A stretch of DNA of 64,000 bases, taken from Alphaproteobacteria bacterium. GTDB lineage: Bacteria; Pseudomonadota; Alphaproteobacteria; Bin95. The stretch covers positions 2,016,001-2,080,000 of the forward strand of contig CBDBGH010000003.1 of the NCBI GenBank assembly GCA_965205265.1. The letters run 5' to 3'. The stretch's first letter is position 1. Each line of letters begins with the position of its first letter. The notes under the pieces are model-generated. The model did no database searches. It was not told the origin of the DNA and worked only from the letters and a program-made list of their open reading frames with translations. The position numbers and the translations under genes are program-made. Positions 15,238-62,535 of this stretch are shown one piece after another.

Positions 15238-15403
15238 AGGGGCGTTATACCAACGGCCTCAATTCGGACTCATGGCGACGGTCATGGCTTTATTATCGTC
15301 GCCCCGGTTCTCGCAGCACCCCCCTTCGTCATACCCGGACTTGTTCCGGGCATCCATGCGGCCGTCCGACGGAAGCGGTGGCGGGAGATACCCGGAACAA
15401 GTC

Positions 15404-15748
15404 CACTGCTGTCCGGTTTAGGTTTTGCGGACAGGACGCATGGCCTGGATTCAAGCGGGTTTCCAAGGGTCCGGTCGAACCGGGACTCCGATCGACGCCC
15501 GGCGCGCCGCCCCTCTTCATCGTCATGCCCTCATATCGTCATGCCCGGACTTGTTCCGGGCATCCATGCGACCGCCGCGATGGCCCCGACGGAGATGCCC
15601 GGAACAAGTCCGGGCATGACGGAGGAGGGCGTTCGGGCACAGCGCAGGGAGGCTGTTCGGACACGATGGAGGGAAGCGGACCGGAGACACCGCGCGCGCC
15701 CAAAAACTCCGGACCGGACCGGCCCAATGATGGAACCGGACACCAGTG
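15404..15748 (+). mobile_element. Non-autonomous MITE, copy 1 (345 bp, REP-targeted)
   Basis: TIRs CACTGCTGTCCGGTT / AACCGGACACCAGTG (14 of 15 match); 9-bp direct repeat GAACAAGTC at 15395-15403 and 15749-15757; near-identical inverted copy at 28384-28731. Confidence 0.9.
15537..15621. repeat. REP doublet internal to MITE copy 1
   Basis: CGTCATGCCCGGACTTGTTCCGGGCATC-spacer-GATGCCCGGAACAAGTCCGGGCATGACG; perfect inverted arms. Confidence 0.9.
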
Positions 15749-15901
15749 GAACAAGTCCGGGTATGACGGGCAGAGGGCGTGATGGGAAAGGGTCGGGCCG
15801 CCGGTTACGGACCGAAACGAGATGTGTGCATGCGGTGGGATCGCGTCCGGGGTGACGGCCGGAGCGGCTCCACCATCGGTTCCAATCGACGACCGTTGAT
15901 A

Positions 15902-16303
15902 TCAGCTGTCCGCGGCAAACGGATTCACGATAACGAGGCCGTCGATCCGCCGTCCGGCCTGCAGGTCTTCCGTAAGAAGCGTTTCGCAACCGGCCCGGAG
16001 AGCCGAAGCGATAATCAATGAGTCGTAAAAACTGAAGCCATGCGCCTCGGCCAGCGCGACGGCGGCTTCATGCGTCTCGATATCGAGAGGCCGAATCGAG
16101 TCGAACAACTCACGCACATCCGCGACCGCCGCCGCAACGATGTTCCACTCCAGCCGGAATTTCCGCCGCAAGACATTGGCGAACTCGTTCAGCACCTGCA
16201 CACTGATGGTGCCGCCATCCATGAGCGCTCCGCGCGCGGCCTCGCCCTTTACGCCCGGCCCTTGGGCATAGACCAGGACATTCGTGTCGAAGAATGCCGT
16301 CAT
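15902..16303 (-). CDS. vapC: PIN-domain toxin
   Basis: FFDTNVLVY, QVLNEF, FYDSLIIASA, LLTEDL. Confidence 0.9.
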   Translation of the reverse strand: MTAFFDTNVLVYAQGPGVKGEAARGALMDGGTISVQVLNEFANVLRRKFRLEWNIVAAAVADVRELFDSIRPLDIETHEAAVALAEAHGFSFYDSLIIASALRAGCETLLTEDLQAGRRIDGLVIVNPFAADS

Positions 16304-16530
16304 CGGGCGTTGGCTTCGTTCCGGTCGAAGATGTAGTCGTCAGGGATGGGCAGGGCGCGCGCGCGCATCCGTTCTATGGCGCGCAGCCTGCGTTCGTCTC
16401 TGGCAATGGCGAGGCGGCCGGGATTGGCCGACACGATCTCCAGACGATCTCCCGCCTTCAGGTCGAGAGCGTTCACCAGAGCTTTGGGCAGACGCACCGC
16501 CAAGCTGTTGCCCCATTTCGAGACCCGCAT
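16300..16530 (-). CDS. AbrB/MazE/SpoVT-family antitoxin
   Basis: MRVSKWGNSLAVRLPK; FDRNEANAR C-terminus; overlaps the toxin start. Confidence 0.9.
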   Translation of the reverse strand: MRVSKWGNSLAVRLPKALVNALDLKAGDRLEIVSANPGRLAIARDERRLRAIERMRARALPIPDDYIFDRNEANAR

Positions 16531-16559
16531 GGATATACTCCATGATAGACCACTACTTA

Positions 16560-16569
16560 AAGATATCTT
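16560..16569. promoter_or_regulatory. Candidate TA operator palindrome
   Basis: AAGATATCTT, a perfect 10-bp palindrome in an AT-rich patch ~30 bp upstream of the antitoxin. Confidence 0.4.
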
Positions 16570-16709
16570 AGGCGCTTTCCAACCGGCTTCAAGTCGAAAT
16601 CGTCTCGGAGCCTGCATGGACCGCACGCATTCTTTCCGGCCCCGCCGGGTCGAACACTCCCCGCATCGCATCTGGAGATTGCGTCCGGCCCATGTCAGGC
16701 TGGGCGGCC

Positions 16710-17524
16710 ATGACCTTCGTTTCCAACGCCCGCATGTATGCCGTCAGCCCGGAGGCCGAGGCGGAGTGGCAGGCGCTGATCGCCCATGTGGCGGCGGACG
16801 CCGGGGCGTCTTTCGAGTATCTGGCCTATGCCGCGCCGCAGCCGCTGGAGGAGTTGTGGCGCCGTCCCGATCTCGGCTGCGTGCAGATGTGCGGTTATCC
16901 GATTGCGCTCGGGATTGCCGAGGTCCTGCCGCTGGCCTCGCCCGTGCCCGCCGCGCCCTGGGCCGGGGGCAAGGCGGTTTACCGGACACCGACCTGATCG
17001 TGCGGAAGGACGCGCCCTACGCCGCGCTCGAAGACACGTTCGGCGGCGCGGTCGGCTGGACCGTCGAGCACTCGCATTCGGGCTTTAATGCGCTGCGCCA
17101 TCATCTTCTGCCCCGGCGGGGCGAGGGCCGGGCAGAGCTTTACCGGAAATCCATCGGCCATCTCGTCACGGCCCGGCGCATCCTCGACAGCGTGCTGGAC
17201 GCCAGCATCGACATCGGGCCGCTGGACGCCTACTGGCACATGCTCATGCGGAAATACGAGCCCGCGCTGACGGAGGGCGTCCGCATTCTGGACTCGACCG
17301 CGACCGCGCCGATGCCGGCCTTCGTCGCCGCGCCGGCCTTGCCTGCGGAAACGGCCGCCCGCCTGCGCGAGTCCTTTGCGGCGGCGCATACGCGGCCCTG
17401 GTTCGGGCGGTTCCGGGAGGCTCTGCTCGTCGAGGGGTTCGAGACCGTCACGCGGGAAACCTTCGCCCCGACGCTGGAATGGGACCGGGCCGCCCGCGCG
17501 GCGGGTTATACTGTGCCGGCGTGA
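16710..17524 (+). pseudogene. PhnD-like substrate-binding-fold protein, frameshifted near 16985
   Basis: The N-part (MTFVSNARMY...MCGYP...KAVYR) and C-part (TDLIVRKD...HSHSGFNALR...GPLDAY) are in different frames; TACCGGACACCGACCTG has 2 extra bases. Confidence 0.75.
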
Positions 17525-19197
17525 TGGCGGAAACCGGTATGAGCTACGATTTCGATCTCGGACCCTGGTCGCGCAGGGTCTCGACGACATCGGAGGCCGC
17601 GCAGCGCTGGTTCGACCGCGGGCTGAACTGGAACTTCGCCTTCAACCATGACGAGGCGGCCGCCTGCTACAGGCGGGCGGCGGAGGCGGACCCGGCCTGC
17701 GCCATGGCCCGCTGGGGCATCGCCCATGCGATGGGCCCCTTCTACAACCGGGCGTGGATCCGCTACTCGGACGCCGAGATCGCCGAGGTGCTGCCGGCCT
17801 GCCACGAAGCGGCGGCGGCCGCGCTGTCTCTCGCGGGCGATGCGGCGCCGGCCGAACGGGCCCTCATCCATGCGCTCGCGAAGCGCTACCGGAACGGCCA
17901 TGAGCGGGACCGCGCGGTCCTGGACGCCTGGCACCGGGACTATGCCGACGCGATGCTGGAAGCCTGCCGGGCGCATCCCGACGACCCGGACATCGCCGCG
18001 CTCTATGCCGAGGCGGCAATCACCTGCACGCCCCGCCGGCTCTGGAACCCGAAGACCGGGGAGCCCGACCCGGATGCGCGCACGATGGAGGCGATGCCGG
18101 TGCTGGAGCGCTGGATGGACCGGATCGGGCGCGGCGGCCCCGCTCATCCGGGCATTCCCCACATGTATATCCACACCCTGGAAATGTCGCCCTTCCCCGA
18201 GCGCGCGCTCAAGGCCGCCGACATGCTGCGCGGTTACGCCCCCGATGCGGGCCATATGGAGCACATGCCGGCGCATATCTATGTGCTCTGCGGCGACTTT
18301 GCGCAGTCGGTCTCGCAGAGCGAACGCGCCGTGCGGGCGGACGACAAATATCTCGCCCATGCCGGGGACGGGAACTTCTACACGACCGTCCGCTGCCACG
18401 ACCTCCACCTGTTCATGTATGCGGCCATGTTCCTCGGCCAGTTCGCCAAGGCCTCCCATGCCGCCGGGCGCATCCGCAGGGTGGCAAGATCTGAGCTGAT
18501 CGCCTGGAGCGCGCCCTTCATGGCGTCCATCCTCGACGGCTATTCCGCCATGTGCACGCATGTCCGGGTCCGCTTCGGCCGCTGGCGCGAACTCGCCGAA
18601 TCGCGCGGCCCCGACGACGCCTCGTTGCGCCCGATCGGCGCCGCCATGCACGCCTACGGGCAGGGGGTGGCGCATGCCGCGCTCGGCAATATCGGCGCGG
18701 CGGAAGCGGCGAGAGGGGCGTTCGACGAGGCTGCGGCGGCGATTCCGGAGGACGCGATCTTCCTCAGCAATACGGTCCGCGACATGCTCCGGGTCGGCGA
18801 AGCCATGCTGGCGGGCGAGCTGGAATACCGGAAGGGCAATCACGACCGCGCCTTCGAGAGCCTCCGCCTGGCGGTCGCGCGCGACGACTCGCTCAACTAC
18901 ACCGAGCCCTGGGCCTGGATGCACCCGCCGCGCCACGCTCTGGGTGCGTTGCTCGCGGAGCAGGGCCTGTTCGGGGAGGCCGAGGCCGTGTTCCGCGAAG
19001 ACCTCGGCTACAGCGGCGGCCTGCCGCGCTGCTGCCAGCATCCCGACAATGTCTGGGCGCTGCAGGGGCTGGTCGAATGCGTGGAGCAGGCGGGAGACGC
19101 CAACGAACTCCGGCTGCTCCGCCAGAGGCTGGATTTCGCGAAGGCGCGCGCCGACATCCCGATAGACAGCGCCTGCTTCTGCCGCGCCGCCGCGTAG
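17524..19197 (+). CDS. TPR-like repeat protein of unknown function
   Basis: AQRWFDRGL...FNHDEA, HPGIPHMYIH, HMPAHIY, YTEPWAWMHPPRHALG, HPDNVWAL. Confidence 0.8.
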   Translation: MAETGMSYDFDLGPWSRRVSTTSEAAQRWFDRGLNWNFAFNHDEAAACYRRAAEADPACAMARWGIAHAMGPFYNRAWIRYSDAEIAEVLPACHEAAAAALSLAGDAAPAERALIHALAKRYRNGHERDRAVLDAWHRDYADAMLEACRAHPDDPDIAALYAEAAITCTPRRLWNPKTGEPDPDARTMEAMPVLERWMDRIGRGGPAHPGIPHMYIHTLEMSPFPERALKAADMLRGYAPDAGHMEHMPAHIYVLCGDFAQSVSQSERAVRADDKYLAHAGDGNFYTTVRCHDLHLFMYAAMFLGQFAKASHAAGRIRRVARSELIAWSAPFMASILDGYSAMCTHVRVRFGRWRELAESRGPDDASLRPIGAAMHAYGQGVAHAALGNIGAAEAARGAFDEAAAAIPEDAIFLSNTVRDMLRVGEAMLAGELEYRKGNHDRAFESLRLAVARDDSLNYTEPWAWMHPPRHALGALLAEQGLFGEAEAVFREDLGYSGGLPRCCQHPDNVWALQGLVECVEQAGDANELRLLRQRLDFAKARADIPIDSACFCRAAA

Positions 19198-19209
19198 CGC
19201 GGATCGGGC

Positions 19210-19914
19210 CTACAGGCCGAAGAGCTCCCGTACCTCCGCCGCCATCGCTTCCGTCATCGCCGCGAGCGCCTTGCGGCCCTTCTCGGCCGTCGCGCGCGTC
19301 GGGCGGCCGACCGTGCCGGAGCGGCTGTAGGCGGCGAGGCCCCTGACAACCAGCAGCGGGCGTTCGGCGAGCTCATCGGCGGCCTCCTCCATGCGGACCA
19401 GTTGCGGCCGGCAATGGAGCAGGACCGAGGTTTCGTATTCGCCCGCATGCATGTCGTCATGCACGCTGGTCTCGATGCCGGCGGCGGCGAAGGCCGCTTC
19501 CTGGATATGCCGGCCGGGACCGAGCCAGACGCAAGGGCCGTCGAGATTGGCTTCCCGCGCGAGATGCGACAGCACCAGGTTGCCGCCATGCGCATTGACG
19601 ATGGCGAGCCGGTCGATGCCGGCATGCGCAAGGCTCGCGCGCATGTCGCCGACGACCGCCGCAAGCGTATCCGCCGCCAGCCAGACCGTGCCGGGAAAGC
19701 CTGCATGCTCCTGCGAGCAGGAGACCGGCAGCACCGGCAGCAAAAGCGCGTCCGTCTTCTCCGCCAGCCCGGCGGCGAGCGCGCCTGCGATCAGGCTGTC
19801 GGTGGCGAGCGGCAGGTGGCTCCCATGCTGCTCGAACGCGCCGACGGGCAGCACGGCAAGCGCCGGCCGGCCGACATCGGCAGCGGTGCGGGCGAGGAAG
19901 GCTTCCGGTAGCAT
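19210..19914 (-). CDS. Creatininase-family protein
   Basis: PVGAFEQHGSHLPLATD, SQEHAGFPGT, NAHGGN, HAGEYETS. Confidence 0.9.
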   Translation of the reverse strand: MLPEAFLARTAADVGRPALAVLPVGAFEQHGSHLPLATDSLIAGALAAGLAEKTDALLLPVLPVSCSQEHAGFPGTVWLAADTLAAVVGDMRASLAHAGIDRLAIVNAHGGNLVLSHLAREANLDGPCVWLGPGRHIQEAAFAAAGIETSVHDDMHAGEYETSVLLHCRPQLVRMEEAADELAERPLLVVRGLAAYSRSGTVGRPTRATAEKGRKALAAMTEAMAAEVRELFGL

Positions 19915-19943
19915 GGCCGCCATCCTATCAGGAGGCGGCAGGC

Positions 19944-20699
19944 GTGAAACCCGACTATGAGCGCATTGCCGGGGATTACCGGGAGGCCCGCCCCCACTAT
20001 CCGGAGCGGCTGGTTGCGCCGATCGCCGGCTGGTTGCCGGAGGGGCCGCTGGAAGCGCTCGACGCGGGCGCAGGCACCGGCATCGGCACACGCGCACTCG
20101 CCGGCGTTCTGGGGCCGCGGGCGTCCATCCTGGCGGTGGAGCCGAGCCCGGCCATGCGGCGGGAGGCGGAGGCCGCGCCGGGCATACGCTGGCTCGACGG
20201 CAGGGCGGAGGCGCTGCCCGCGGGCGACGCCAGCATAGATCTCGTCTTCTCGGCCCAGGCGCTCCACTGGTTCGACCGCCCGGCCTTCTGGCGGGAATGC
20301 CGGCGGGTGCTGAAACCGGGCGGGACGGTCGCCATCCTCTACAACAACCGGGACTACAGGCGGGACGCCTTCGCCAGCGGCTATGAAGACCTGCTGGAGC
20401 GCTACAGCCCGGGCTACCGCCGCGACTACCGCGAGTTCGATATCCGGGGCGAGCTCGCCGCGCTCGACTGGACGGTTCGCACGCATGAGGAAGGCGAGGT
20501 CTGGACAAGGCCGATGCGCCCGGACGCCTTCATGGCGATGTCCCGTTCGTCCTCGCGGGCGCAGGCCGCGCGGGACGCCGCCGGGGCGGATGTCTTCGAC
20601 CGCGAAGTGGAGGCGCTGATGGAACGGCACGCAAAGGCCGACGGATCGGTCGAAGTGCTCTACCGCTGCGTGCTGACCCTCGCCGCGAAGGCGGGCTGA
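19944..20699 (+). CDS. Class I SAM-dependent methyltransferase
   Basis: LDAGAGTG, AVEPS, AQALHWFD, RVLKPGG; GGAGG RBS upstream. Confidence 0.9.
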   Translation: MKPDYERIAGDYREARPHYPERLVAPIAGWLPEGPLEALDAGAGTGIGTRALAGVLGPRASILAVEPSPAMRREAEAAPGIRWLDGRAEALPAGDASIDLVFSAQALHWFDRPAFWRECRRVLKPGGTVAILYNNRDYRRDAFASGYEDLLERYSPGYRRDYREFDIRGELAALDWTVRTHEEGEVWTRPMRPDAFMAMSRSSSRAQAARDAAGADVFDREVEALMERHAKADGSVEVLYRCVLTLAAKAG

Positions 20700-20705
20700 T
20701 GCGGG

Positions 20706-21293
20706 CTAAAGCACCGTCACCGCCCAGCCGGCGTCGGTCCGGTCGAAGCGGAGCGGCAGGGCGTTCGGCGCGTATTCGTCGAGGAACGCGACGCCGAGGG
20801 CGGCTGCGATGACGCGCAGATTGCCGCCATGCGCCACGATGCAGGGGACATCGCTGCCGTCGAGCGCGGCCGCCGCGGCGGATTTGGTGCGGGCGACGAA
20901 GGCTTCCAGCGTCTCGCCGCCTGCCGGCCGCGCGCGCCAGTCGAGTTCCAGCGCTGTCTGGCCGACGAGTTCCCCGAACAACCGCTCGCCGAGCCGGGGC
21001 GTGGCGTTCATCGGCACGGCGAGCCGGCGGGCGACGGCCTGGGCGGTCTCATAGGCGCGCGGATAGCTGCTGGCCTCGATGCGGGTAATGTCCCCGGCGC
21101 CGGCAAGCCGTCCGGCGGCGCGCTCCGCCTGTGCGCGCCCGGCCTCGTTCAGCGGAATGACCGGGCTCTGCACGATGAAGGTGGCATTGCCGGCGGTCTC
21201 GCCGTGCCTCAGGAAGTAGAACCGCCGCACCCCGGGCCTGAGCTCCGGCGGCGCGGCGGCAAGAGCCCTCAGCTCCTCGCCGCCCCGGATCAT
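20706..21293 (-). CDS. Histidine phosphatase family protein
   Basis: LRHGET, RAYETA, VAHGG. Confidence 0.88.
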   Translation of the reverse strand: MIRGGEELRALAAAPPELRPGVRRFYFLRHGETAGNATFIVQSPVIPLNEAGRAQAERAAGRLAGAGDITRIEASSYPRAYETAQAVARRLAVPMNATPRLGERLFGELVGQTALELDWRARPAGGETLEAFVARTKSAAAAALDGSDVPCIVAHGGNLRVIAAALGVAFLDEYAPNALPLRFDRTDAGWAVTVL

Positions 21294-21303
21294 CGCGGCC
21301 GCG

Positions 21304-22512
21304 TCAAAGCGCGCCGGCCTGTTTCAGGTCCGCCACTTCCGCGGGCGGCATGTCCAGCAGCTCGCCCAGCACCGCCTCGTTGTGCTCGCCGAGCAGCGGC
21401 GCCCGCGCCACCTCCATCGCCTCGCCGCCGAAGCGCACCGGCCAGGCCGGCACCACCACCGCGCCCCGGTCCGGGTGCTCGACGGTCTGCATGATGCCCC
21501 GGCGGTGCATGTCCTCGTTCGAGATCAGGTCCTTGATGTCGAACACCGCGCCCGCCGGCACGCCCGCCCCGCCGATGGCCTCCATCACTTCCTGCTTGGT
21601 GCGCTCGCGCGTCCAGGCCGACACGTTCTCCTCGATCTCGGCCTTGTGCTCGATGCGCTTGTGGCCGTCGCAGAAGCGCGGGTCGGCCAGCATGTCCTCG
21701 CGCCCGATGGCCTTGCAGACCCGTTCCCAATGCGCCGTCAGGTCGCGGGCGACGAAGATGAAGCAATAGTCGTTCGGCCCGCCGCCCTTGCAGGGGAACA
21801 ACCCGCCCGGCGCGCCCGAGGCGACCGAATTGCCGAGCCTGGGCGCCGCTTCCTGCATCATCGGCTGGCGCGAGAAGGTGACGCGGCAATAGTTCGTCAT
21901 CGCGTCCTGCATCGCCACCTGGAGATGCTGGCCGCGCCCGGTGCGCTCGCGCTGGAAGAGCGCGGAGAGGATCGAGACGCACATATGCAGGCCGGTGCCC
22001 GTGTCGCCGATGGTGGCGCCGGGGCGGATCGGCACGCCGTCCGGCATGCCCGTGATGCTCATCACCCCGCCCGTGGCCTGGGCGATCATGTCGAAGGAAA
22101 GGTATTTCGCGTAGGGCCCGTCCGTGGCGAAGCCCTTCACCTGCGCGAAGACGAGGCGCGGGTTGAGCTTCTGCAGTTCGTCCCAGCCGAAGCCCAACCG
22201 CTCGATGGCGCCCGGCGCGAAATTCTCGATCAGCACGTCCGCCTTGGCGATCAGCCGGCGGAGGAGCTGCTTGCCGCTCTCTTCCTTGAGATTGCAGGTG
22301 ATCGAGCGCTTGTTGCAGTTGAGCAGGATGAAATAGAGCGAATCCATGTCCGCGCGCTCGGAAATCGCGAGCCGGCCCTGGTCGCCGCGCCGGGGCTCCT
22401 CGACCTTGATGACATTGGCGCCGTGCCAGGCCAGCGCCTCGGTGCAGGACGGGCCGGCTTCGAATTGGGTCAGGTCGAGCACGGTAATGCCCGCCAGCGG
22501 CGCATCGCCCAT
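21304..22512 (-). CDS. CoA-transferase family III (formyl-CoA transferase-like)
   Basis: PLAGITVLDLTQFEAGPS, NCNKRSIT, ENFAPG, GDTGTG. Confidence 0.9.
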   Translation of the reverse strand: MGDAPLAGITVLDLTQFEAGPSCTEALAWHGANVIKVEEPRRGDQGRLAISERADMDSLYFILLNCNKRSITCNLKEESGKQLLRRLIAKADVLIENFAPGAIERLGFGWDELQKLNPRLVFAQVKGFATDGPYAKYLSFDMIAQATGGVMSITGMPDGVPIRPGATIGDTGTGLHMCVSILSALFQRERTGRGQHLQVAMQDAMTNYCRVTFSRQPMMQEAAPRLGNSVASGAPGGLFPCKGGGPNDYCFIFVARDLTAHWERVCKAIGREDMLADPRFCDGHKRIEHKAEIEENVSAWTRERTKQEVMEAIGGAGVPAGAVFDIKDLISNEDMHRRGIMQTVEHPDRGAVVVPAWPVRFGGEAMEVARAPLLGEHNEAVLGELLDMPPAEVADLKQAGAL

Positions 22513-22539
22513 CGGTTTCCTCCTTGCTATGCTTGCCGG

Positions 22540-23880
22540 ATGATACAGCAGGCCATCCGCAATGTTCCACTGACCGGGGCCGACCCGGTCTTCCCGACTC
22601 CCTACCGTATCGGCGAGGCGGGCGCGGTCGCCATCGCCGCCTCCGCGCAGGCCGCCGCCGACTTCTGGGAGCTGCGCACGGGCGAACGCCAGTCTGTGAC
22701 GGTGGACCGCCGCCATGCGGCCGCCGCCATGCGCTCCGCCACCTATCTGAAGATCGACGGCGCCGCGCCCGCCTCCTTGTGGGACCCCTTTTCAGGGACC
22801 TATCCGACCGGCGACGGGCGCCATGTCTTCCTGCACTGCAACTTCCCCCACCACCGCGACGGCATGCTGGCGCTGCTCGGCGCGAAGGCGGAGAAGGAGG
22901 CCTTCGCGCAAGCCGTCGCGGCGCGCGGCGGGCAGGAATTCGAAGACGCCATCGCCGCCGCCGGCCTCTGCGGCGCGATGACGCGCACACCGGAGGAATG
23001 GGCCGCTCACCCGCAGGGCCGGGCGCTTGCGGGCCTGCCGCCCGTTACCATCGGGCGCATCGGCGACGGGCCGAAGACCGCGCCGCGCGGCGGCGGCCGG
23101 CCGCTCGCGGGCATCCGCGTGCTGGACCTCACGCGCGTGCTGGCCGGGCCGACCTGCGGGCGCGCGCTCGCCGAGCACGGCGCGGACGTCATGCGCATCG
23201 CCGGGCCGCATCTGCCCTTCACGCCCGCACTCGTCATGGACACGGGCCACGGCAAGCTCTCCGCTTTCGTCGATCTCCGCGAGGAGCGCGGCCGGGCCCA
23301 GCTTCGCGCGCTCGCCGCCGAGGCCGATGTGTTCGTGCAGAGCTACCGGCCGGGCACCTTGGCGGCGCGCGGCTTCGGCCCCGGCGATATCGGCCCCGGC
23401 AAGGTCTATGTCTCGCTCTCGGCCTACGGCCATGAAGGGCCATTCGCCATGCGCCGGGGCTTCGACAGCATCGTGCAGAACGCCTCCGGCATGTCCACGG
23501 TGCAGGGCAGCAGGCAGGCGCCGCGCAACCTGCCCGTGCAGCCGCTCGACTATTGCGCCGGCTACCTCGCCGCCTGGGGCGTCGCGACGGCGCTGCTGCG
23601 CCGGGCGGAGGAAGGCGGGACCTGGCATGTGCAGCTTTCGCTCGCCGGCATGGCGGAATGGATCAAGGGCATGGGCCTCGTCGAGGACTGGCAGGACACG
23701 CCGGCGGACCTCGCGCCGGAGGAGCTTGCGGCGATCACGATGGAGAGCGACACCCCGCACGGCCGCCTCACCCATCTGGCTCCGATTGCGCAGATGTCGG
23801 CGACGCCGCCGCACTGGGCGCGGCCCTCCGTGCCGCTCGGCTCGCACGACCCCGTCTGGCCGGAGGCGCTCGCCGCATGA
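22540..23880 (+). CDS. CoA-transferase family III (two-domain CaiB/BaiF type)
   Basis: C-terminal part of ORF 21382..23880; PLAGIRVLDLTRVLAGP, GKLSAFVDL, RRGFDS. Confidence 0.85.
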   Translation: MIQQAIRNVPLTGADPVFPTPYRIGEAGAVAIAASAQAAADFWELRTGERQSVTVDRRHAAAAMRSATYLKIDGAAPASLWDPFSGTYPTGDGRHVFLHCNFPHHRDGMLALLGAKAEKEAFAQAVAARGGQEFEDAIAAAGLCGAMTRTPEEWAAHPQGRALAGLPPVTIGRIGDGPKTAPRGGGRPLAGIRVLDLTRVLAGPTCGRALAEHGADVMRIAGPHLPFTPALVMDTGHGKLSAFVDLREERGRAQLRALAAEADVFVQSYRPGTLAARGFGPGDIGPGKVYVSLSAYGHEGPFAMRRGFDSIVQNASGMSTVQGSRQAPRNLPVQPLDYCAGYLAAWGVATALLRRAEEGGTWHVQLSLAGMAEWIKGMGLVEDWQDTPADLAPEELAAITMESDTPHGRLTHLAPIAQMSATPPHWARPSVPLGSHDPVWPEALAA

Positions 23881-24632
23881 GCCGCCTGCCCCGCGGTCCC
23901 GGCGCCGCGATCCACTACGAGACGCACGGAGAGGGGCCGGCGGTCCTGCTCAGCCACGGCTTCGGGCTGACGGCGCGCATGTGGGCGGGCCAGGTGGAGG
24001 CGCTCGCGCCCGCCAACCGCCTCGTCCTCTGGGACCTGCGCGGGCACGGGCGCAGCGACTCGCCCGAAGACCCCGGCCTCTACGACCCGGAAGCCTGCGT
24101 GGCCGACATGGCCGCCCTGCTGGATGCGGAGGGAATCGAGCGGGCGGTCGTCGGCGGCCTCTCGCTCGGCGGCTACCTGTCGCTCGCCTTCCATCTCCGC
24201 CATCCCGAGCGCGTGCGGGCGCTGATGCTGTTCGACTGCGGCCCCGGCTTCCGCCGCGACGAGCCGCGCGAGGCCTGGAACGAGCGCACGCGCAAGCGAA
24301 GCGAGCGGATTGCGGCGGGCGATGCGCGGGCGCTCGCGGAGCTCGAGCCGGGCGGCCACCGCGACCTCGCCGGCGTCGCCCGCGCGGCGCGCTGGACGAT
24401 GCTTCACCATGACGGCAGCGTGCTCGAATCCCTGCCTTCGATCCGGGTGCCGGCGCTGGTGCTGGTCGGCGAGGAGGACGCGCCCTTCCGCGGGGCCGCC
24501 GACTACATGGCCCGGAAGATCCCGAACGCCGAACGGGTGGTGCTGCCGGACGCCGGCCACACGGCGAATCTCGACAATCCCGCGGCGTTCAACGCCGCCG
24601 TCTCCGCCTTCCTGGCGGGATTGCCTTCGTGA
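23877..24632 (+). CDS. Alpha/beta hydrolase
   Basis: HGF, DLRGHGRS, GLSLGG, GEED, AGH; ATGA overlap with the upstream gene. Confidence 0.88.
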   Translation: MSRLPRGPGAAIHYETHGEGPAVLLSHGFGLTARMWAGQVEALAPANRLVLWDLRGHGRSDSPEDPGLYDPEACVADMAALLDAEGIERAVVGGLSLGGYLSLAFHLRHPERVRALMLFDCGPGFRRDEPREAWNERTRKRSERIAAGDARALAELEPGGHRDLAGVARAARWTMLHHDGSVLESLPSIRVPALVLVGEEDAPFRGAADYMARKIPNAERVVLPDAGHTANLDNPAAFNAAVSAFLAGLPS

Positions 24633-25843
24633 GCGCGCCCGCCTACAGCCTTGCCCGCGATGCGCGGGTCATCGGCCTTGTGGCCGCCGGGCACACGATG
24701 AGCCACATGTTCGTCTTCCTGCTGCTGCCGCTCTCGGTGCGCATGCATGACGAACTCGGCTTCAGCTATCTCGAAGTCGGCATTCTGGCGGGCGCGTTCT
24801 CGGTCGGCGCCGCGGTCTGCCAGACGGGAATCGGCTTCGTCGTGGACCGCATCGGCGGGCGGACGCCGCTCATCCTGGGCGTCGCCGTGCTCTCCGGGGC
24901 CGTGATGGGCTTCGGGCTGGTGTCGTCCTTCTGGGCCATGCTGCCGCTCGCGGTCATCGGCGGCATCGCCAACTCCGTCTTCCACCCGGCCGACTACGCC
25001 ATCCTCTCGGCCTCGGTCGCCGAGCACCGCATGGGGCGCGCCTTCTCCATCCACGCGGTCGCCGGCAATACCGGCTGGATCCTGGCGCTGCTCGGTCCCG
25101 ACCTCGCCGATATCGTCGGCCTGAAGGGCGTCTTCCTCGTCGCGGGCGGCATCGGCATCGCCGTCTCCTTCGCGCTTCTGCTCCAGTCCCGGCATCTGGA
25201 GAGCGCCGACGGCAGGGCGCGGCGGCGCGAACAGGGCGGCTCGACCTCGGACGGCATCGCGCTTCTGCTGACCGTGCCGGTCATCCTGCTGTTCCTGTTC
25301 CAGATGTTCCACTCCATGTCGCTCGGCGGCATCCGCACCTTCGGGATTCCGGCGCTGCACGACCTGCGCGGCTTCGACGACACGGTCATCGCCAAGGCGC
25401 TGATCGCCTACATGGTGGCGGCCTCGGTCGGCAATCTCCTCGGTGGCTGGCTGGTGGACCGCACCGGCCGCCCGCAGCTCGTGTTCTTCGGCGCCATCGG
25501 CACGGTCTTCGTTGCGGTCAACATCATCGGCGCGGTTCCGCTGCCGCTCTACGGCATCGTTCCCCTGATGATGGTCTCGGGCGTCGCGCACGGCGCCATC
25601 ATGCCGACCCGCGACCTGCTGGTGCGCCGCATCTCGCCGCCGGGGCAGATGGGCAAGGTGTTCGGCTTCACCTCCACCGGCCTCTCCATCGGCGGCTTCA
25701 TGACGCCGATCCTGTTCGGCTGGGTGATGGACATGGGCGACCCGAGCTGGGTGTTCTTCGGCAGCGCGGCCGTCATGCTGCTCGCCGTCGCCACCTTCGT
25801 CGAAACCAACCGCAATGTCGGCCGAGCGAGGGCAACGGCATGA
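24629..25843 (+). CDS. MFS transporter
   Basis: Multi-TM; DRIGGR, FHPADY, DRTGR. Confidence 0.88.
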   Translation: MSAPAYSLARDARVIGLVAAGHTMSHMFVFLLLPLSVRMHDELGFSYLEVGILAGAFSVGAAVCQTGIGFVVDRIGGRTPLILGVAVLSGAVMGFGLVSSFWAMLPLAVIGGIANSVFHPADYAILSASVAEHRMGRAFSIHAVAGNTGWILALLGPDLADIVGLKGVFLVAGGIGIAVSFALLLQSRHLESADGRARRREQGGSTSDGIALLLTVPVILLFLFQMFHSMSLGGIRTFGIPALHDLRGFDDTVIAKALIAYMVAASVGNLLGGWLVDRTGRPQLVFFGAIGTVFVAVNIIGAVPLPLYGIVPLMMVSGVAHGAIMPTRDLLVRRISPPGQMGKVFGFTSTGLSIGGFMTPILFGWVMDMGDPSWVFFGSAAVMLLAVATFVETNRNVGRARATA

Positions 25844-26721
25844 ACATGAAACAACTTCCCGCAGGCAACGAACTCTTCCTCGACCACGTCGGCTATTTCC
25901 TCGCCGACCTCGAAGGCGCGGCGGCGCGCTTCGGGCGGCTCGGCTTCACCGTCTCGCCGGTCAATATCCACTACAACAGCGCCGACGGCGAACTCGTGCG
26001 CTCGGGCACCGCCAACCGGCTCATCACCTTCGAGGCGGGCTATATCGAGGCGCTCGGCCAGGTCGCGGACACGCCGCTCGGGGCGGAACTCGCCGCGGGC
26101 GTCGCACGATACGAGGGCCTCCACCTGCTCGCGCTTGCGCATGAGCGGGTCGAGGAGCACGACACCGGCGGCACGGAGATGCGCCCCACCGTCTTCCTGC
26201 GCCGCCCGCTGGAGGACGGGCGCATCGTCCGGGCCACCGTCCGCCGGGCAACGGCCGAAGCCATGCCGGAAGGCCGCGTGCAACTGCTCACCCACGAGAC
26301 GCCGGACCTCATCTGGCTGCCGGGCATGGACCGCCACACCAACGCCGCCCGCGCGCTCACCGGCTACCTGCAGGTCGTCGCAGACCCGGAAGAGGCGGCC
26401 GAGCGCTACGCCCGCTTCGCAGGCCGCCCCGCGCGCAAGTCGGGACCGGTCTTCGAGATCGCGCTCGACCGCGGCCGCTTCGCGCTCGCGGGCCCGGATG
26501 CGCTCGGCGCGCTATTGCCGGACGAAACCCGTCCACCGCTGCCCTTCGCCGCCGCCGTCGGCATCGAGAGCGCAGACCTCGACCGCACGCGTTTCCTTCT
26601 TGCGAACGCGGGCATTACCATCCATGGGCGGCCGGACCGCCTGCTGGTCCCGCCTTCGGAGGGCCTGGGTGCCTGGATCGACTTCCACCGCCCCGGCGCC
26701 CCTCCGCTCTGGACCGCATGA
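25840..26721 (+). CDS. VOC/glyoxalase-like protein
   Basis: LDHVGY, RLGFTV, GTANRLI...YIE. Confidence 0.75.
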   Translation: MNMKQLPAGNELFLDHVGYFLADLEGAAARFGRLGFTVSPVNIHYNSADGELVRSGTANRLITFEAGYIEALGQVADTPLGAELAAGVARYEGLHLLALAHERVEEHDTGGTEMRPTVFLRRPLEDGRIVRATVRRATAEAMPEGRVQLLTHETPDLIWLPGMDRHTNAARALTGYLQVVADPEEAAERYARFAGRPARKSGPVFEIALDRGRFALAGPDALGALLPDETRPPLPFAAAVGIESADLDRTRFLLANAGITIHGRPDRLLVPPSEGLGAWIDFHRPGAPPLWTA

Positions 26722-27102
26722 CGGGATGATCCTTCGAATTTCATGAAATGAACAATTTCCGATATTTGTAAATTTTGTTCCCTATATAGCCTTAATATCT
26801 GGCGGATTGCGGTATGACGGTCGCCAAGGAAGCGGACTCCGGAGCCGCCTTCCCGGGTGCTGCGCGGCCGGGCGGCGCCGATTTCTGAAAACCCATGAGA
26901 AGCCGAAGGGACGTGCGCCCTGTGCCTCGCGCGCGAAAACGCCGGCGGGGGACGATGCGCTCGAAGCCGGTCGGCGCGGCGCGCGGGCCGTTCGGTTCGT
27001 CGAATTCGTGGAACGGGAGCCCGCTGGCGCGGTCGGGCGCGATGGTCCCCCGGTTCCGTCGCCATATGCGGCGGCAACACACCGGGCCCCGATGACCCTG
27101 CG

Positions 27103-28263
27103 TTACCGCTTCGATGACAATGCGGTTTCACGGACGATCCGCCGCACGGTCTCGGCCGCGCGGAGGCTGGGCCGCCCGCCGCCGCCGAGTTCGCCGGCCA
27201 GCTCCCGGAAGGCTGCCAATTGCGCCGCGCGCGCCTCTTCATCGACGAGCAGCGGCCGGAGCGCCCTTGCAAGCGGGCCCGGCCGGCAGTCCCCCTGGAT
27301 CAGTTCCGGCACGACGGGTCGGTCGAGCAGGATGTTGACGGGGCAGAACCGGCGGCGCCGGATCGCGAACCGGCCGATGAGCGCCGTGGCAGGGTTCAGC
27401 CGGTAGGCCGTCACCTGCGGCACGCCGGCGCGCGCGAGTTCGAGCGCAACCGTGCCGGACGCGCCCAGCGCCGCCCGGCTGGCCGCGAAGGCGCCCTGTT
27501 TTTCCTCCTCGCCGAGCGTGACCGCCGCCGGCCACGGCCAGCCCGCCACCGTGTCCCGCACCCGGTCTGCCACCGTGCCGACGGTCGGCACCGCCAGATG
27601 CAGGCCGGGAACATCCGCGGACAGGCGCTCCAGCACCTCCCGGAACACCGGCAGCAGCCGGCGCACCTCGCCCGCCCGGCTTCCCGGCAGCACCGCAAGC
27701 AGGGTGTCCTCCGGCGCAATGCCGTGCCGGGCCCGGAAGGCCGCGCCGTCGCCCGGCTCCGCCTCGACCAGCGAGTGGCCGACGAAGGTGGAGGCCAGGC
27801 CCTCGCGCTCGAACAGGGCGGGCTCGAACGGCCAGAGCGTCATCAGATGGTCGAAGAGCCCGGCCATGCGGCGCGCGCGGCCGGGCGCCCAGACCCAGAC
27901 CATCGGCGCGACATAGTGGATGCGCGCGGCCGGGCAGCCTGCCGCGATCAGGCGCCTTGCAAGGCCCTTGTTGAATCCGCCCGAATCGATGGTGACGACG
28001 GCGTCCGGCCGGAAACGCAGGATGTCGGCGGCCGTCTCGTCCATCCGGCGCAGCAGCCTGCGGGCGCGCGGCAGCACCTCGAAGAGGCCCATCACGGCGG
28101 TCTCCGCCTGCGGGAACAGGCTGGCGACGCCTTCCCCCGCCATGAGTTCGCCGCCGACGCCGGCCGCCTCCACCGGCCCGCCCTCGCGCAAGGCGCTCAG
28201 CAGCCGCGCGCCCAGCGCATCGCCCGACGGCTCGCCCGCGACGATATAGACGCGCAGGGTCAC
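27103..28263 (-). CDS. lpxB: Lipid-A-disaccharide synthase
   Basis: AGEPSGD, VMGLFEV, ID..GFN, YVAP.VWVW, LPGSR, SGT, VPELIQ. Confidence 0.93.
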   Translation of the reverse strand: MTLRVYIVAGEPSGDALGARLLSALREGGPVEAAGVGGELMAGEGVASLFPQAETAVMGLFEVLPRARRLLRRMDETAADILRFRPDAVVTIDSGGFNKGLARRLIAAGCPAARIHYVAPMVWVWAPGRARRMAGLFDHLMTLWPFEPALFEREGLASTFVGHSLVEAEPGDGAAFRARHGIAPEDTLLAVLPGSRAGEVRRLLPVFREVLERLSADVPGLHLAVPTVGTVADRVRDTVAGWPWPAAVTLGEEEKQGAFAASRAALGASGTVALELARAGVPQVTAYRLNPATALIGRFAIRRRRFCPVNILLDRPVVPELIQGDCRPGPLARALRPLLVDEEARAAQLAAFRELAGELGGGGRPSLRAAETVRRIVRETALSSKR

Positions 28264-28310
28264 GATGCCCGGCCGCCGGCGGAAGCGGGGGGCGCTTCCC
28301 GCGCCTCTTT

Positions 28311-28357
28311 CGTCACCCCGGCGGGAACGGAGCGAAGCGGAGCGGAGAGCCGGGGTC
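28311..28357. repeat. CGTC-tagged palindromic repeat of a second subtype
   Basis: CGTCACCCCGGC...GGAGCGAAGCGGAGCGGAGA-GCCGGGGTC stem, next to the REP/MITE. Confidence 0.55.
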
Positions 28358-28363
28358 TCCTTC

Positions 28364-28751
28364 CGTCATGCCCGGAACGAGTCCACGGCTGTCCGGTTCC
28401 ATCATTGGGCCGGGCCGGTCCGGAGTTTTTGGGCGCGCGCGGTGTCTCCGGTCCGCTTCCCTCCATCGTGTCCGAACAGCCTCCCCGCGCTGTGCCCGAA
28501 CGCCCTCCTCCGTCATGCCCGGACTTGTTCCGGGCATCTCTCTCAACCGTCTCTGCTGGGCGGCCGCATGGATGCCCGGAACAAGTCCGGGCATGACGAT
28601 ATGAGGGCATGACGATGAAGAGGGGCGGCGCGCCGGGCGTCGATCGGAGTCCCGATTCGACCGGACCCTTGGAAACCCGCTTGAATCCAGGCCATGCGTC
28701 CTGTCCGCAAAACCCAAACCGGACAGCAGTGGAACGAGTCCGGGCATGACG
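28364..28751. repeat. Single 31-bp REP palindrome split by MITE copy 2
   Basis: CGTCATGCCCG-GAACGAGTC[MITE]GAACGAGTC-CGGGCATGACG. Confidence 0.88.
28384..28731 (-). mobile_element. Non-autonomous MITE, copy 2 (348 bp, inverted relative to copy 1)
   Basis: TIRs CACGGCTGTCCGGTT / AACCGGACAGCAGTG; 9-bp direct repeat GAACGAGTC at 28375-28383 and 28732-28740; internal REP doublet at 28511-28598. Confidence 0.9.
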
Positions 28752-32470: not shown

Positions 32471-32519
32471 AATACAGGGCAGATTTGCACAAATACCGAA
32501 ACTCTCTCAGGGAGGCTTT
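32471..32519 (+). repeat. 49-bp target-site duplication, left copy
   Basis: AATACAGGGCAGATTTGCACAAATACCGAAACTCTCTCAGGGAGGCTTT, identical to 34436-34484. Confidence 0.92.
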
Positions 32520-34435
32520 CCTGACTTCGACGGTTGGGCTGACTTCTGACCGATCTCGCGTCTGGAGTTTTCAGTAAAGCCAATGAGTTGGCAGTTGCGG
32601 TGCGGTCAAGCTGCGTTGTAGTGCCTAGTAAATCTTTGAGACTGTCAATGCCTCCGCCACGCGCTACACTCCCCCCATGTTCGTGCGCATCAAGACCTCC
32701 CCCAACAGCCCGCGACGCTCGGTCCAGATCGTCGAGGCCGTGCGCGACGGCGGCAAGGTCCGACAGCGCATCGTCCGCCATGTCGGCGTGGCCATGGACG
32801 AGGACGAGCTCGAGCGCCTGAGGCAGCTCGGCGAGTACGTCAAGGCGAAGCTGGAGGACGAGCGTCAGCCGGCATTGTTTGCGCCCGAGAAGATCGCTGA
32901 GCAGGCGATCCGTGTCGGCCGCCGGGGGGACGGCAAGGAGGAACTCCCGGTCGACCTCAAGCAGCTTGAAGAGGAGCAGCGCCTGATCACAGGCATCCAC
33001 GAGGTCTATGGCGAGATCTACCGGCTGCTGGGCCTCGACGCGCTGCTGCCGCGCTCGCGCTACCGGGCCTCCCATGACGCGCTGTTCCATGTGGTGATGG
33101 CGCGGGTAGCCAACCCCGACAGCAAGCGGGGCAGCGTGCGCCGGCTCGAGGAGGACTTCGGCGTGAGTCTTCCGCTCGAGAAGGTCTACCGGATGATGGA
33201 TCAGCTCGACGCGACGGTGATCGAGCGACTGCGCACGCGCGTCGGCGAGGCGAGCCGGTCGCTGCTGCCGGAGCCGGTCGCGATCCTCTTCTTCGATTGC
33301 ACCACGCTCTACTTCGAGACGGCCGCCGAGGACGAGCTTCGCCAGCACGGCTTCAGCAAGGACGGCAAACACAAGGACTCGCAGGTTCTGCTGGCGCTGA
33401 TGGTGACGCGCGAAGGGCTGCCGATCAGCTACGAGGTCTTCCCCGGCGCCACCTACGAGGGACACAGCATGGTCCCGGTCCTGCAGGACATGCAGCGCCG
33501 CCACCAGGTGGAGCGCACGGTATGCGTGGCCGACCGGGGCATGCTGAGCGCCGACAACCTCGACGCCATGGACGCCATCGGCGGCGAGTATGTCGTCGGC
33601 GCGCGGCTGCGCAAGCTGCCGCTCGCGCTGCTGGGGCAGGTTCTCGACCCCGGGACCTATGCCCCGCTGGAGGGCTCACAGGACCGCCGGGTCGGCGAGT
33701 GGGAGTACAAGGGCCGTCGCCTGATCGTCGTCTTCTGCCCCCAGCGCGCACGCAAGGACGCGCACGAGCGCCGCCATCAGGTGGAACGCCTGCTCGACAG
33801 GCTGGCCCGCAGCGACAATCCCAGGGAACTGCTCTCCAATCACGGGGCGAAGCGCTTCATCGCCGTCGAGGGCGACGCACGGCTCACGGTGAACCCGGAG
33901 AAGATCGCCGAGGCCGCACGATGGGACGGGCTCACCGGCGTCATCACCAATCTGCGCGACGCGCGCGTCACCGAAGTGATGGCTCACTACCAGGGGCTCT
34001 GGCAGGTCGAGGAGAGCTTCCGGATCACCAAACACGACCTGAAGATACGTCCCATCTGGCACTGGAACCCGGACCGGATCCGCGCTCACATCGCCATCGC
34101 CTTCCTGGCCTTCGCCTGCGTTCGACACCTTGCGTACCGCGTCGCCATCCAGAAGCGGCGGATGTCCCCGGAGGTCATCCGCTCCGCCCTCGTCCACCGC
34201 CAGTGCTCCCTGCTGCGCTGTCGGCAATCGGGCAACCGCTACGTCATCCCCTCGAAGCCGACACCGGCGGCGGAGCAGATTTACGCAACCATGGGGCTGC
34301 CCCTGACGATCACCCCGTATCAACTCGCCTGACCGTCGACGAAGCACGGCTCGAAGAAATGCCGGATGTAGTGCCTAGCCGAAATGAGAACCAGGCAATA
34401 TCAACTACTTATGCGAATCAACCGTCGAAGTCAGG
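32520..34435 (+). mobile_element. IS1634-family insertion sequence
   Basis: Perfect 17-bp TIRs CCTGACTTCGACGGTTG / CAACCGTCGAAGTCAGG; one transposase ORF; long flanking direct repeats. Confidence 0.92.
32677..34332 (+). CDS. IS1634-family DDE transposase
   Basis: FFDCTTLYFE, GFSKDGK, VADRGM, YQGLWQVEESFRITKHDL, RPIWHW, IRAHIAIAF. Confidence 0.92.
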   Translation: MFVRIKTSPNSPRRSVQIVEAVRDGGKVRQRIVRHVGVAMDEDELERLRQLGEYVKAKLEDERQPALFAPEKIAEQAIRVGRRGDGKEELPVDLKQLEEEQRLITGIHEVYGEIYRLLGLDALLPRSRYRASHDALFHVVMARVANPDSKRGSVRRLEEDFGVSLPLEKVYRMMDQLDATVIERLRTRVGEASRSLLPEPVAILFFDCTTLYFETAAEDELRQHGFSKDGKHKDSQVLLALMVTREGLPISYEVFPGATYEGHSMVPVLQDMQRRHQVERTVCVADRGMLSADNLDAMDAIGGEYVVGARLRKLPLALLGQVLDPGTYAPLEGSQDRRVGEWEYKGRRLIVVFCPQRARKDAHERRHQVERLLDRLARSDNPRELLSNHGAKRFIAVEGDARLTVNPEKIAEAARWDGLTGVITNLRDARVTEVMAHYQGLWQVEESFRITKHDLKIRPIWHWNPDRIRAHIAIAFLAFACVRHLAYRVAIQKRRMSPEVIRSALVHRQCSLLRCRQSGNRYVIPSKPTPAAEQIYATMGLPLTITPYQLA

Positions 34436-34484
34436 AATACAGGGCAGATTTGCACAAATACCGAAACTCTCTCAGGGAGGCTTT
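34436..34484 (+). repeat. 49-bp target-site duplication, right copy (contains the SBP ribosome-binding site)
   Basis: Identical to 32471-32519; GGAGG lies just before ATG 34488. Confidence 0.92.
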
Positions 34485-61503: not shown

Positions 61504-61516
61504 GGGGATTATATAC

Positions 61517-61545
61517 TTGACGGCGCAAACCGGAGCGCCTATATT
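61517..61545 (+). promoter_or_regulatory. Sigma70-type promoter of the IS1595 element
   Basis: TTGACG-17 bp-TATATT, then GGAGG and ATG 61569. Confidence 0.7.
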
Positions 61546-61568
61546 CATCCTTACAGGGAGGATCCACT

Positions 61569-62534: not shown

Positions 62535-62535
62535 C

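Follow-up and report, generated by a model that had tools for sequence, protein, structure and literature searches.

How do two non-coding elements of about 345 bp come to be placed, each exactly, at the center of a REP palindrome and between two copies of a 9-bp repeat? The question is raised by the window analyzed here (a stretch of 64,000 nucleotides from an alphaproteobacterium), in which the following features are relevant. G009 is a related genome.

15326..15394 (+), target REP doublet, undisturbed part: CGTCAT tag and first REP (core at 15334-15350), then the spacer and the second REP's left stem; aligns to the intact doublet of G009
15395..15403 (+), left 9-bp target-site duplication of copy A, GAACAAGTC; single in the G009 empty site
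15404..15748 (+), MITE copy A (345 bp), read from left to right arm
15404..15418 (+), left TIR of copy A, CACTGCTGTCCGGTT
15544..15614 (+), REP doublet inside copy A; cores at 15544-15560 and at 15598-15614, with oppositely oriented loops
15734..15748 (-), right TIR of copy A, with 1 mismatch
15749..15757 (+), right 9-bp duplication of copy A, GAACAAGTC, followed by the right REP stem and an ATGACG tag
28375..28383 (+), left 9-bp duplication of copy B, GAACGAGTC (a loop variant of the host REP itself)
28384..28731 (-), MITE copy B (348 bp), read from left to right arm
28518..28591 (-), REP doublet inside copy B; cores at 28518-28534 and at 28575-28591
28732..28740 (+), right 9-bp duplication of copy B, GAACGAGTC

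Each flanking 9-mer corresponds to the middle 9 bp of a palindrome of the GCCCGG-N5-CCGGGC type and comprises two stem pairs, the 5-nt loop, and again two stem pairs. With up to two mismatches, the 15-mer CACTGCTGTCCGGTT occurs four times in the window versus 0.05 expected from shuffles (four is reached in 0/100 shuffles). Copy B is inverted relative to copy A; in the alignment, flanks included, the mean column identity is 95%. The spacer between the internal REPs diverges strongly between the copies, with a 3-bp indel in addition. Outside that spacer, our count by eye is about 7 substitutions inside the element, where the initial annotation, also by eye, gave about 6. The rest of its description of the two copies stands: the 15-bp TIRs and 9-bp flank repeats lie at the coordinates claimed, the repeat follows the variant of the host REP (GAACAAGTC at copy A, GAACGAGTC at copy B), the orientations relative to the target loop are opposite, and the REP doublet of each MITE amounts to two further intact target cores. 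No Rfam family matched the window at gathering thresholds.

At the site of copy A, the REP doublet of G009 (contig C34) is unbroken and contains just one GAACAAGTC, and the site of copy A, once rejoined, is the intact REP of G009. Such a pair of filled and empty orthologous sites attests to past mobility of copy A. Folded as single-stranded DNA, the empty-site doublet gives a long hairpin (-48.9 kcal/mol, z = -9.9). For copy B, no REP-bearing empty site was found in the relatives examined.

Element ends and their 9-bp flanks were tabulated over the whole genome (5.7 Mb; C3 labels one of its contigs). A half REP adjoins 87 of the 93 ends, the other six being at non-REP DNA. Thirty-five copies are paired, always with one left-type and one right-type end, and in 27 of them the 9-bp repeats are direct (23 perfect, four with one mismatch; one of these four lies within a 24.5-kb segmental duplicate and is not independent). 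Loop variants are repeated on both sides (GATCAAGTC twice, GAACGAGTC once). This tabulation, proposed by the initial annotation as a check, bears out insertion in REP centers with a 9-bp duplication, and the elements show what Tobes and Pareja call a type 1 association of an IS with REPs, with six non-REP ends and eight irregular pairs as exceptions. One copy outside REPs (C3:636222-636584) has a perfect 9-bp duplication of its own, CGCCGGCCG. Among copies with direct repeats, a tally by hand over the genome gives about 14 in one orientation versus 11 in the other with respect to the target loop, so that insertion orientation is unbiased.

In six of the 35 pairs, the flanking 9-mers are reverse complements instead of direct repeats, and two pairs are otherwise irregular. 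A large inversion as the source of inverted flanks is ruled out at two of the six sites, where five relatives show the neighboring genes in collinear order; the relatives have no REP at the first of the two. Possibly, the inverted-flank copies record integration events in which the two REPs of a doublet took part.

The length of simple paired copies ranges over 307-428 bp, and element-derived DNA forms about 58 blocks in the genome. Identity between copies reaches 98%-99% in the best pairs and is nowhere complete. These elements have the attributes of MITEs: they are short, multi-copy, and devoid of transposase coding capacity, and their TIRs are common to an autonomous element and accompanied by a target-site duplication. 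With the cognate transposase as query, tblastn found no match in the blocks other than a 488-bp IS remnant. In a plasmid collection, blastn with the whole element matched only its REP-doublet part.

The partner with the same ends is an insertion sequence of the IS4 family; it measures 1259-1296 bp and codes for a protein of 380-402 amino acids. Its transposases score 243-270 bits with NCBIfam NF033592 (cut-off 115), contain the Pfam domains DUF4372 (PF14294) and DDE_Tnp_1 (PF01609), and are 47% identical to proteins labeled ISRel1. The IS4 motif Y-(2)-R-(3)-E-(6)-K is present in translations of the full-length elements (LYKRRWQVELFFKWIKQ, LYKRRWAVELFFRWVKQ) and not in the non-coding copies of the window. 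Four intact copies of 1270 bp occur in G010, a genome of the same genus; two lie in REPs with the duplication GAACAAGTC and two outside REPs, with CGCCGTGGC and CAGCGACGG. The 15-17 bp of the MITE ends are identical to the ends of this IS, and the MITE left arm matches its left end over ~49-55 bp at 75%-84% (84% for the first ~49 bp of copy A). The resemblance is limited to the first ~50 bp of one MITE arm; on these alignments, the MITEs might descend from a G010-type IS or might share its ends only. Subgroup IS4Sa, in Table 1 of PMC2266710, has CA------T ends, a length of 1150-1750 bp, and direct repeats of 8-10 bp. With ends beginning CACTGCTGT and a T at position 9, the partner IS fits this description, judged from its sequence, in its size and duplication length as well as in its end signature and YREK motif.

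The initial annotation had called for a long element with the same TIRs around a transposase ORF. Such an element is present in the congener; in this genome, there is only a 488-bp, multiply deleted IS (C3:1981754-1982241) that retains 46 amino acids of the YREK region. No intact cognate transposase was found here: the family search yields no match reaching the NF033592 cut-off, and neither the pairing of ends up to 6 kb apart, nor the survey of all repeats of at least 600 bp (with the ends of 24 inspected), nor tblastn reveals an intact autonomous partner. Two intervals were considered and rejected as partners. The 1876 bp between two right-type ends (C3:687902-689777) hold an ordinary gene and no transposase. 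The 2.2-kb spacing of two identical left ends (C3:2360072 and C3:2362314) results from an IS1634-like element inserted in a MITE with a duplication of ~220 bp. Since only the 488-bp remnant is left, the MITE copies of this genome are probably stranded and immobile today. With the cognate query, no intact transposase was found in the MITE-rich genomes, namely this one, G009 (58 ends), and G004 (32 ends), the latter two being fragmented drafts. In G010, the sole genome with an intact IS, the exact end pattern has 13 matches, eight of them at the ends of its four IS copies.

Very probably, then, the elements form a non-autonomous MITE family that has been moved in trans by an IS4-family IS of ~1.27 kb, which prefers the REP axis and generates a 9-bp target-site duplication. 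The DDE transposase of that IS would mobilize the MITEs and presumably cut the target with a 9-bp stagger, as other IS4-family elements do; repair of the gaps would yield the duplication. Target choice follows a preference, strong but short of absolute, for the axis of two-fold symmetry in CGTCAT-tagged REP palindromes, where the duplication always consists of the 5-nt loop with two stem pairs on either side. A transposase complex with two-fold symmetry may read the symmetric GC-rich arms around an A/T-richer, bendable duplex center, and would not recognize one particular 9-mer. Integration into a short hairpin stem would not fit the 9-bp stagger.

The targeting is a strong preference and not strict site specificity, because insertions outside REPs with perfect 9-bp duplications exist (one MITE here, two of the four full-length copies in the congener, and MITEs in other taxa). 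The site-specific DDE-type system proposed at the outset is therefore retained as regards the DDE transposase, the true 9-bp duplication, and the strong preference for REP centers; it is not strictly site-specific, and it is incomplete in this genome. Elsewhere, among the matches listed, at least 20 ends in at least 15 alphaproteobacterial loci adjoin, by eye, halves of CGTCAT-type REPs of differing sequence, and ends in other phyla adjoin unrelated, often AT-rich DNA.

Could the transposase read the 9-mer itself, and not the surrounding palindrome? Most duplications in this genome are indeed GAACAAGTC-like 9-mers or one-base variants of them. However, insertions in the same register occur in alphaproteobacterial REPs of other sequence (GGACAAGCC in locus L074, GGTCGG-type stems in Kiloniellales loci), and the duplications outside REPs are unrelated 9-mers (CGCCGGCCG, CGCCGTGGC, CAGCGACGG, GGCTCCGGC). 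In addition, the two 9-mers occur 22 times outside an intact REP context and away from element ends, and both orientations are about equally used. Recognition of the 9-mer is, on this evidence, improbable. The same targeting in REPs of different sequence points to recognition of symmetry or shape of the palindrome, and not of one sequence.

Still less probable is essentially random insertion, with selection keeping only the copies that fell in harmless REPs. REPs are intergenic and presumably neutral as landing sites, and two of the four full-length copies in G010, as well as a few MITEs, do lie outside them. On the other hand, 87 of the 93 ends occupy one single register of the 17-bp core, and a register cannot be fixed by selection for intergenic sites. 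Intact cores number about 254 in 5.7 Mb, to which the occupied ones are added, and the chance per insertion would be about 5 in 100,000.

Movement by another resident transposase is just as hard to sustain. The candidates would be the IS1634-like element, of which the genome has roughly 55-60 copies, or a REP-associated tyrosine transposase (RAYT), since RAYTs move REPs elsewhere. But the ends of the IS1634-like element (CCTGACTTCGACGGTTG), like those of the other multi-copy repeats examined, are unlike the MITE ends, and the genome has no match to PF01797 (RAYT/IS200), which was detected in control genomes. A 9-bp duplication next to inverted ends is not what tyrosine HUH transposases produce.

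That the half-REPs are simply the outer part of a longer inverted repeat belonging to the element, without any REP targeting, can practically be dismissed: the flanks of six of the 35 pairs, and of one full-length copy in locus L044, are perfect inverted repeats, but the asymmetric REP loop distinguishes direct from inverted flanks and 27 of the 35 pairs are direct, both flanks follow the variant of each site, G009 has an uninterrupted REP at the site of copy A, and elements sharing these ends also occur outside REPs, between other 9-bp duplications.

Returning to REP-axis insertion by an IS4-type transposase, the internal REPs of the MITEs deserve attention. A REP doublet is present in all copies of this genome, so that each insertion splits one REP and brings two; 62 of the 254 intact cores of this genome lie inside element-derived DNA. 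The REPs brought in are in turn reused, giving nested copies, and two such copies were found: C3:1631860-1632221 in an internal REP of C3:1631703-1632433, and C3:2362467-2362836 in an internal REP of C3:2362314-2362994. The suggestion in the initial annotation that the element carries its own target is borne out to this extent. As one REP is split and two are delivered, the MITE might even be a vehicle for CGTC-tagged REP doublets that breeds its own landing sites, the IS4-type transposase maintaining or expanding the REP population in alphaproteobacteria without RAYTs; we regard this wider proposal as tentative and rather doubtful. CGTC-tagged REPs are a class reported without a dedicated transposase in the part of PMC3733652 that concerns them, and the MITE would offer them a concrete, testable route of spread. 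A transposon that multiplies the target it carries would constitute a positive feedback in the ecology of the genome. For annotation, many REPs that look "broken" in the genus are accounted for by the family, as are many of its nested repeats and assembly breaks, and an abundant repeat, until now unassigned, is linked to a named transposase family.

The novelty appears to lie in a non-autonomous form that never lacks a REP doublet. No description of a REP-targeting MITE with REP cargo was found in open-access full text; in the accessible text of a 2024 review of MITEs (PMC10969869), IS4 is absent and the reference list is the sole place where the word REP appears, and in the portions of PMC3184786 that treat REPs, these appear only as IS targets.

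The initial annotation argued for novelty by contrast with known REP-targeting elements of the IS3 and IS110 families, which give short or no duplications, and overlooked ISRm22, of the IS4 family. In the IS3 and IS110 families, the REP-targeting elements have transposases unrelated to the present one and duplications that are absent or of 2-4 bp, and several insert off the REP center. Their REP-specific insertion is treated in sections of PMC1525189 and PMC3184786 (IS1397 and ISKpn1 for IS3; IS621, ISPpu9, ISPpu10, and ISPa11 for IS110).

The REPIN/RAYT system is similar in that both the cargo of the MITE and the free genomic doublets are REP doublets; it differs in that no RAYT gene (PF01797) was found in this genome and in that the MITE moves by inverted ends with a duplication. 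Within the IS4 family, IS50/Tn5 and IS10/Tn10 make 9-bp duplications and favor symmetric targets in which the 9 bp begin and end with G/C. Unlike the present family, they are not known to target REPs, and their hot-spot preference is weak. They belong to other subgroups, with CT/CW ends (PMC2266710, Table 1), and the symmetric-target preference of Tn5 is cited in PMC1525189.

ISRm22 of Sinorhizobium meliloti was described in 2006, in the section of PMC1525189 devoted to it, with all copies inside REPs, at the palindrome axis, and some with hybrid flanks; the relevant entry in PMC2266710 places it in IS4Sa, with target conservation marked. The same section of PMC1525189 lists one copy on pSymB and states direct repeats of 6 bp. 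On pSymB, the IS4 family has a single match; its end is CAGGGCTGTCCGG, its 9-bp duplication is centered on a 26-bp palindrome, and its transposase is 40% identical to that of G010. This element is likely ISRm22, although its equivalents are labeled "ISRm16 family" by PGAP. ISRm22 resembles the partner IS in its DDE/YREK transposase of the IS4 family and, for the pSymB copy, in a related end. It differs as a full-length autonomous IS in another REP class (CCCTCTCCCCGC-type), by the 6-bp repeats of that description (vs. the 9 bp read on the pSymB copy), and by the lack, in the same section, of any non-autonomous derivative or REP cargo. With this comparison, targeting of the REP axis is no longer confined to one rhizobial IS but extends to a broader lineage of alphaproteobacteria with REPs of different sequence.

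The two ~345-bp non-coding MITE copies A and B, each inside a REP (a small CGTCAT-tagged palindromic repeat), are confirmed where the initial annotation had placed them, together with their 9-bp flanking repeats. The REP doublet (two REPs close together) that it had described inside each MITE is present as well, with two intact REP cores in A and two in B. The features of the window, which spans C3:2016001–2080000 of its genome (G000), are listed here (C3 is the contig of the window; L002 is a locus elsewhere).

Window 15395–15403 and 15749–15757: flanking 9-mers of copy A, both GAACAAGTC
Window 15404–15748: MITE copy A
Window 28375–28383 and 28732–28740: flanking 9-mers of copy B, both GAACGAGTC
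Window 28384–28731: MITE copy B, inverted with respect to copy A
Window 32510–34443 (C3:2048510–2050443): IS1634-family-like element, ~1.93 kb, 551-aa transposase, ends CCTGACTTCGACGGTTG; also at L002:1700–3640
Window 61503–64000 (C3:2077503–2080342): 2.84-kb repeat; second copy at C3:2716264–2719103

Four occurrences of the 15-mer end are present in the window (≤2 mismatches; 0.05 expected from shuffles), and four of the six REP cores of the window are borne by the elements. In the alignment, copies A and B are 95% identical with flanks included, and the differences fall mostly within the spacer separating the two internal REPs. That spacer (15561–15597 in A and 28535–28574 in B) is strongly diverged, with a 3-bp indel, next to arms that are ~98% identical, which suggests that the spacers of REP doublets have been exchanged or gene-converted among copies. 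The IS1634-family-like element is present genome-wide in roughly 55–60 copies, one of which is inserted into a MITE at ~C3:2360200, with a direct duplication of ~220 bp that includes the MITE left end. The termini of the 2.84-kb repeat look like inverted repeats (AGGGGATTATATAC...).

For copy A, the orthologous site in the relative G009 is an unbroken REP doublet with one single GAACAAGTC, which aligns exactly where the genome of the window (G000) has 9-mer, element, 9-mer. At the level of sequence comparison, this is proof of insertion of copy A into the REP doublet. At the copy B site, most relatives have only 6–55 bp between the adjoining conserved blocks, without a REP; G007 and G005 carry different, unrelated inserts there, and no empty REP corresponding to the site was found among the relatives compared.

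On the chromosome of G000, 93 family ends occur (≤3 mismatches, filtered by subterminal sequence). Stack pairing yields 35 pairs and 23 solo ends, every pair consisting of one left-type and one right-type end (the two 15–17 bp inverted termini of the family). A half REP ending ...CCGGACTTGTTC or ...CCGGAACAAGTC adjoins 87 of the 93 ends, and direct 9-bp repeats are found at 27 pairs (23 perfect and four with one mismatch, one of these four lying inside a 24.5-kb segmental duplicate and thus not independent). The repeats vary with the loop of the local REP (GATCAAGTC in two cases, GAACGAGTC in one). The orientation of insertion with respect to the asymmetric loop is ~14 to 11 by hand count. With 254 intact REP cores in G000 (≤1 mismatch), random insertion would hit a REP centre, by simple arithmetic, with a chance of ~5 in 100,000. 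The tabulated flanks bear out the association with REP centres, with some copies outside REPs. The non-REP copy at C3:636222–636584 has a perfect CGCCGGCCG duplication. A right-type end at C3:2533097 lies 7.3 kb from a left-type end at C3:2540411 on the same (+) strand, and their flanks share GACGCAAT, mirrored; the two seem to represent a second non-REP insertion with a 9-bp duplication, later broken up by a 7.3-kb inversion that had one of its breakpoints within the element. The most similar pairs of copies are 98–99% identical and none is fully identical. Large, near-identical segmental duplications are present in G000 (C3:36590–61081 vs. C3:5407582–5432139 and other 13–30 kb blocks, also at contig ends) and its estimated contamination is 7.28%, so redundancy in the assembly may have raised some of the repeat counts.

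The multi-copy repeats of G000 whose ends were examined all end differently from the MITEs. Among the 80 loci listed by an end scan of one genome per species, full-length elements with the same inverted ends (L082, three in L044 with one broken, and L077) measure 1259–1296 bp and encode proteins of 380–402 aa. These proteins score 243–270 bits on NCBIfam NF033592 (“IS4 family transposase”, cut-off 115), with the Pfam domains DUF4372 and DDE_Tnp_1 and a visible YREK motif. The congener G010 contains four intact 1270-bp copies of this cognate IS, ending exactly as in the window. Two of the four are at REP centres with GAACAAGTC duplications and the remaining two lie outside REPs (duplications CGCCGTGGC and CAGCGACGG); the preference for REPs is therefore strong, not absolute. 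Over ~49–55 bp, the left arm of the MITE agrees at 75–84% with the left end of the IS, and the second arm resembles the IS in its terminal repeat only. A long element with the same TIRs around a transposase ORF, for which the initial annotation suggested searching, is intact in G010. In G000 it is reduced to a multiply deleted 488-bp remnant (C3:1981754–1982241), in which 46 aa of the YREK region survive. All G000 matches to NF033592 score below the cut-off, and the highest of them (101.9 bits, plasmid C1) belongs to an unrelated element. With only this remnant and nothing at the cut-off, the MITE family in G000 is probably stranded. Among congeners, the family ends number 58 in G009, 32 in G004, 13 in G010, 9 in G012, and 2 in G011; in the genus genomes (G009 and G004 being drafts), we did not see the IS and a large MITE population together.

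Insertions keep a constant register (two stem pairs, loop, two stem pairs), occur in both orientations, and tolerate variation in loops and stems. In other alphaproteobacteria, 20 ends in 15 of the 80 listed loci adjoin, by eye, CGTCAT-type REP halves of different sequence in the same register; in other phyla, among the loci listed, the same end adjoins unrelated DNA. The S. meliloti homologue is inserted in the middle of a 26-bp palindrome that is quite unlike these REPs and is flanked by a 9-bp duplication. A symmetric transposase complex would read, in duplex DNA, the symmetric GC-rich arms flanking a bendable centre; integration into a 7-bp hairpin stem would be at odds with a 9-bp stagger. 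The mechanism first proposed is largely right, except that its strict site specificity is overstated in view of the non-REP insertions with 9-bp duplications in G000 and G010.

In six pairs, the flanking 9-mers are mutually reverse complementary. At C3:520844, each flank derives from a separate REP context, a pattern that recombination between two copies would be expected to leave; at C3:999733, the surroundings are those of one REP, but one 9-mer is flipped. Four cases have the CGTCAT tag on both flanks, which is compatible with a lone REP whose 9-mer was flipped, or with a doublet that has lost its interior and kept its outer halves. Possible causes are a template switch that “perfected” the long quasi-palindrome made up of REP half, 9-mer, and terminal repeat, a recombination joining two insertions within one doublet, or an integration engaging both REPs. 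Large inversions are excluded at two of the sites by the gene order on either side, which relatives share. At the inverted-flank copy C3:1728067–1728412 (region C3:1726300–1730200), G010 and G012 carry an extra coding stretch of ~0.5–0.8 kb that G000 lacks; a deletion during or after the insertion may be the reason.

Exactly two REP cores lie between the arms, in fixed order and orientation, in all 32 simple paired copies. A search for nested copies yields two complete elements, each inside one internal REP of a host copy (C3:1631860–1632221 and C3:2362467–2362836). Six further sites, with a right-type end that lies ~158 bp internal to another right-type end or has host-element sequence as flank, point to partial nesting. 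Element-derived DNA holds 62 of the 254 intact REP cores; 156 of the 192 cores outside elements are in doublets. There is no PF01797 match (RAYT-type gene) in G000, in agreement with the passages of PMC3733652 that report CGTC-tagged REPs without a dedicated transposase. Copies in G007 and G002 (L003–L006) have both arms in common with the window family but enclose another palindrome, CCCCTCTCCCCGC...GCGGGGAGAGG, which belongs to the class of REP that the S. meliloti relative targets. The CCCCTCTCCCCGC class is nearly absent from G000 (four found with a strict pattern). In other taxa, MITEs that are unrelated but end in the same way contain yet other palindromes. The element can therefore do without the CGTC-type REP cargo.

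In the open-access literature searched, as far as its accessible passages go, we found no description of a non-autonomous derivative, of REP cargo with nesting, or of spread across REP classes. The cognate IS fits subgroup IS4Sa in the descriptive criteria of ends (CA------T), length (1150–1750 bp), and repeat size (8–10 bp) set out in passages of De Palmenaer et al. (PMC2266710), where ISRm22 is placed in IS4Sa and the conservation of its target is noted. The transposase of the cognate IS is 40% identical to that of the single IS4-family element on S. meliloti pSymB (L135:286–1584). This element is most likely ISRm22, given that exactly one pSymB copy appears in the relevant passages of Tobes and Pareja (PMC1525189); PGAP labels its equivalents “ISRm16 family”. 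By direct reading, its duplication is 9 bp (CCGCCTGCG), vs. 6 bp for ISRm22 in those passages. The same passages locate every copy of ISRm22 (IS4 family) in REPs of S. meliloti 1021 (10 of 10 in Table 2, nine copies in the genome according to the text), with insertion at the palindrome axis and some hybrid flanks. With this precedent and a cognate IS that fits the IS4Sa description, the novelty initially claimed is overstated, and REP-axis targeting by this IS4-family branch is already known.
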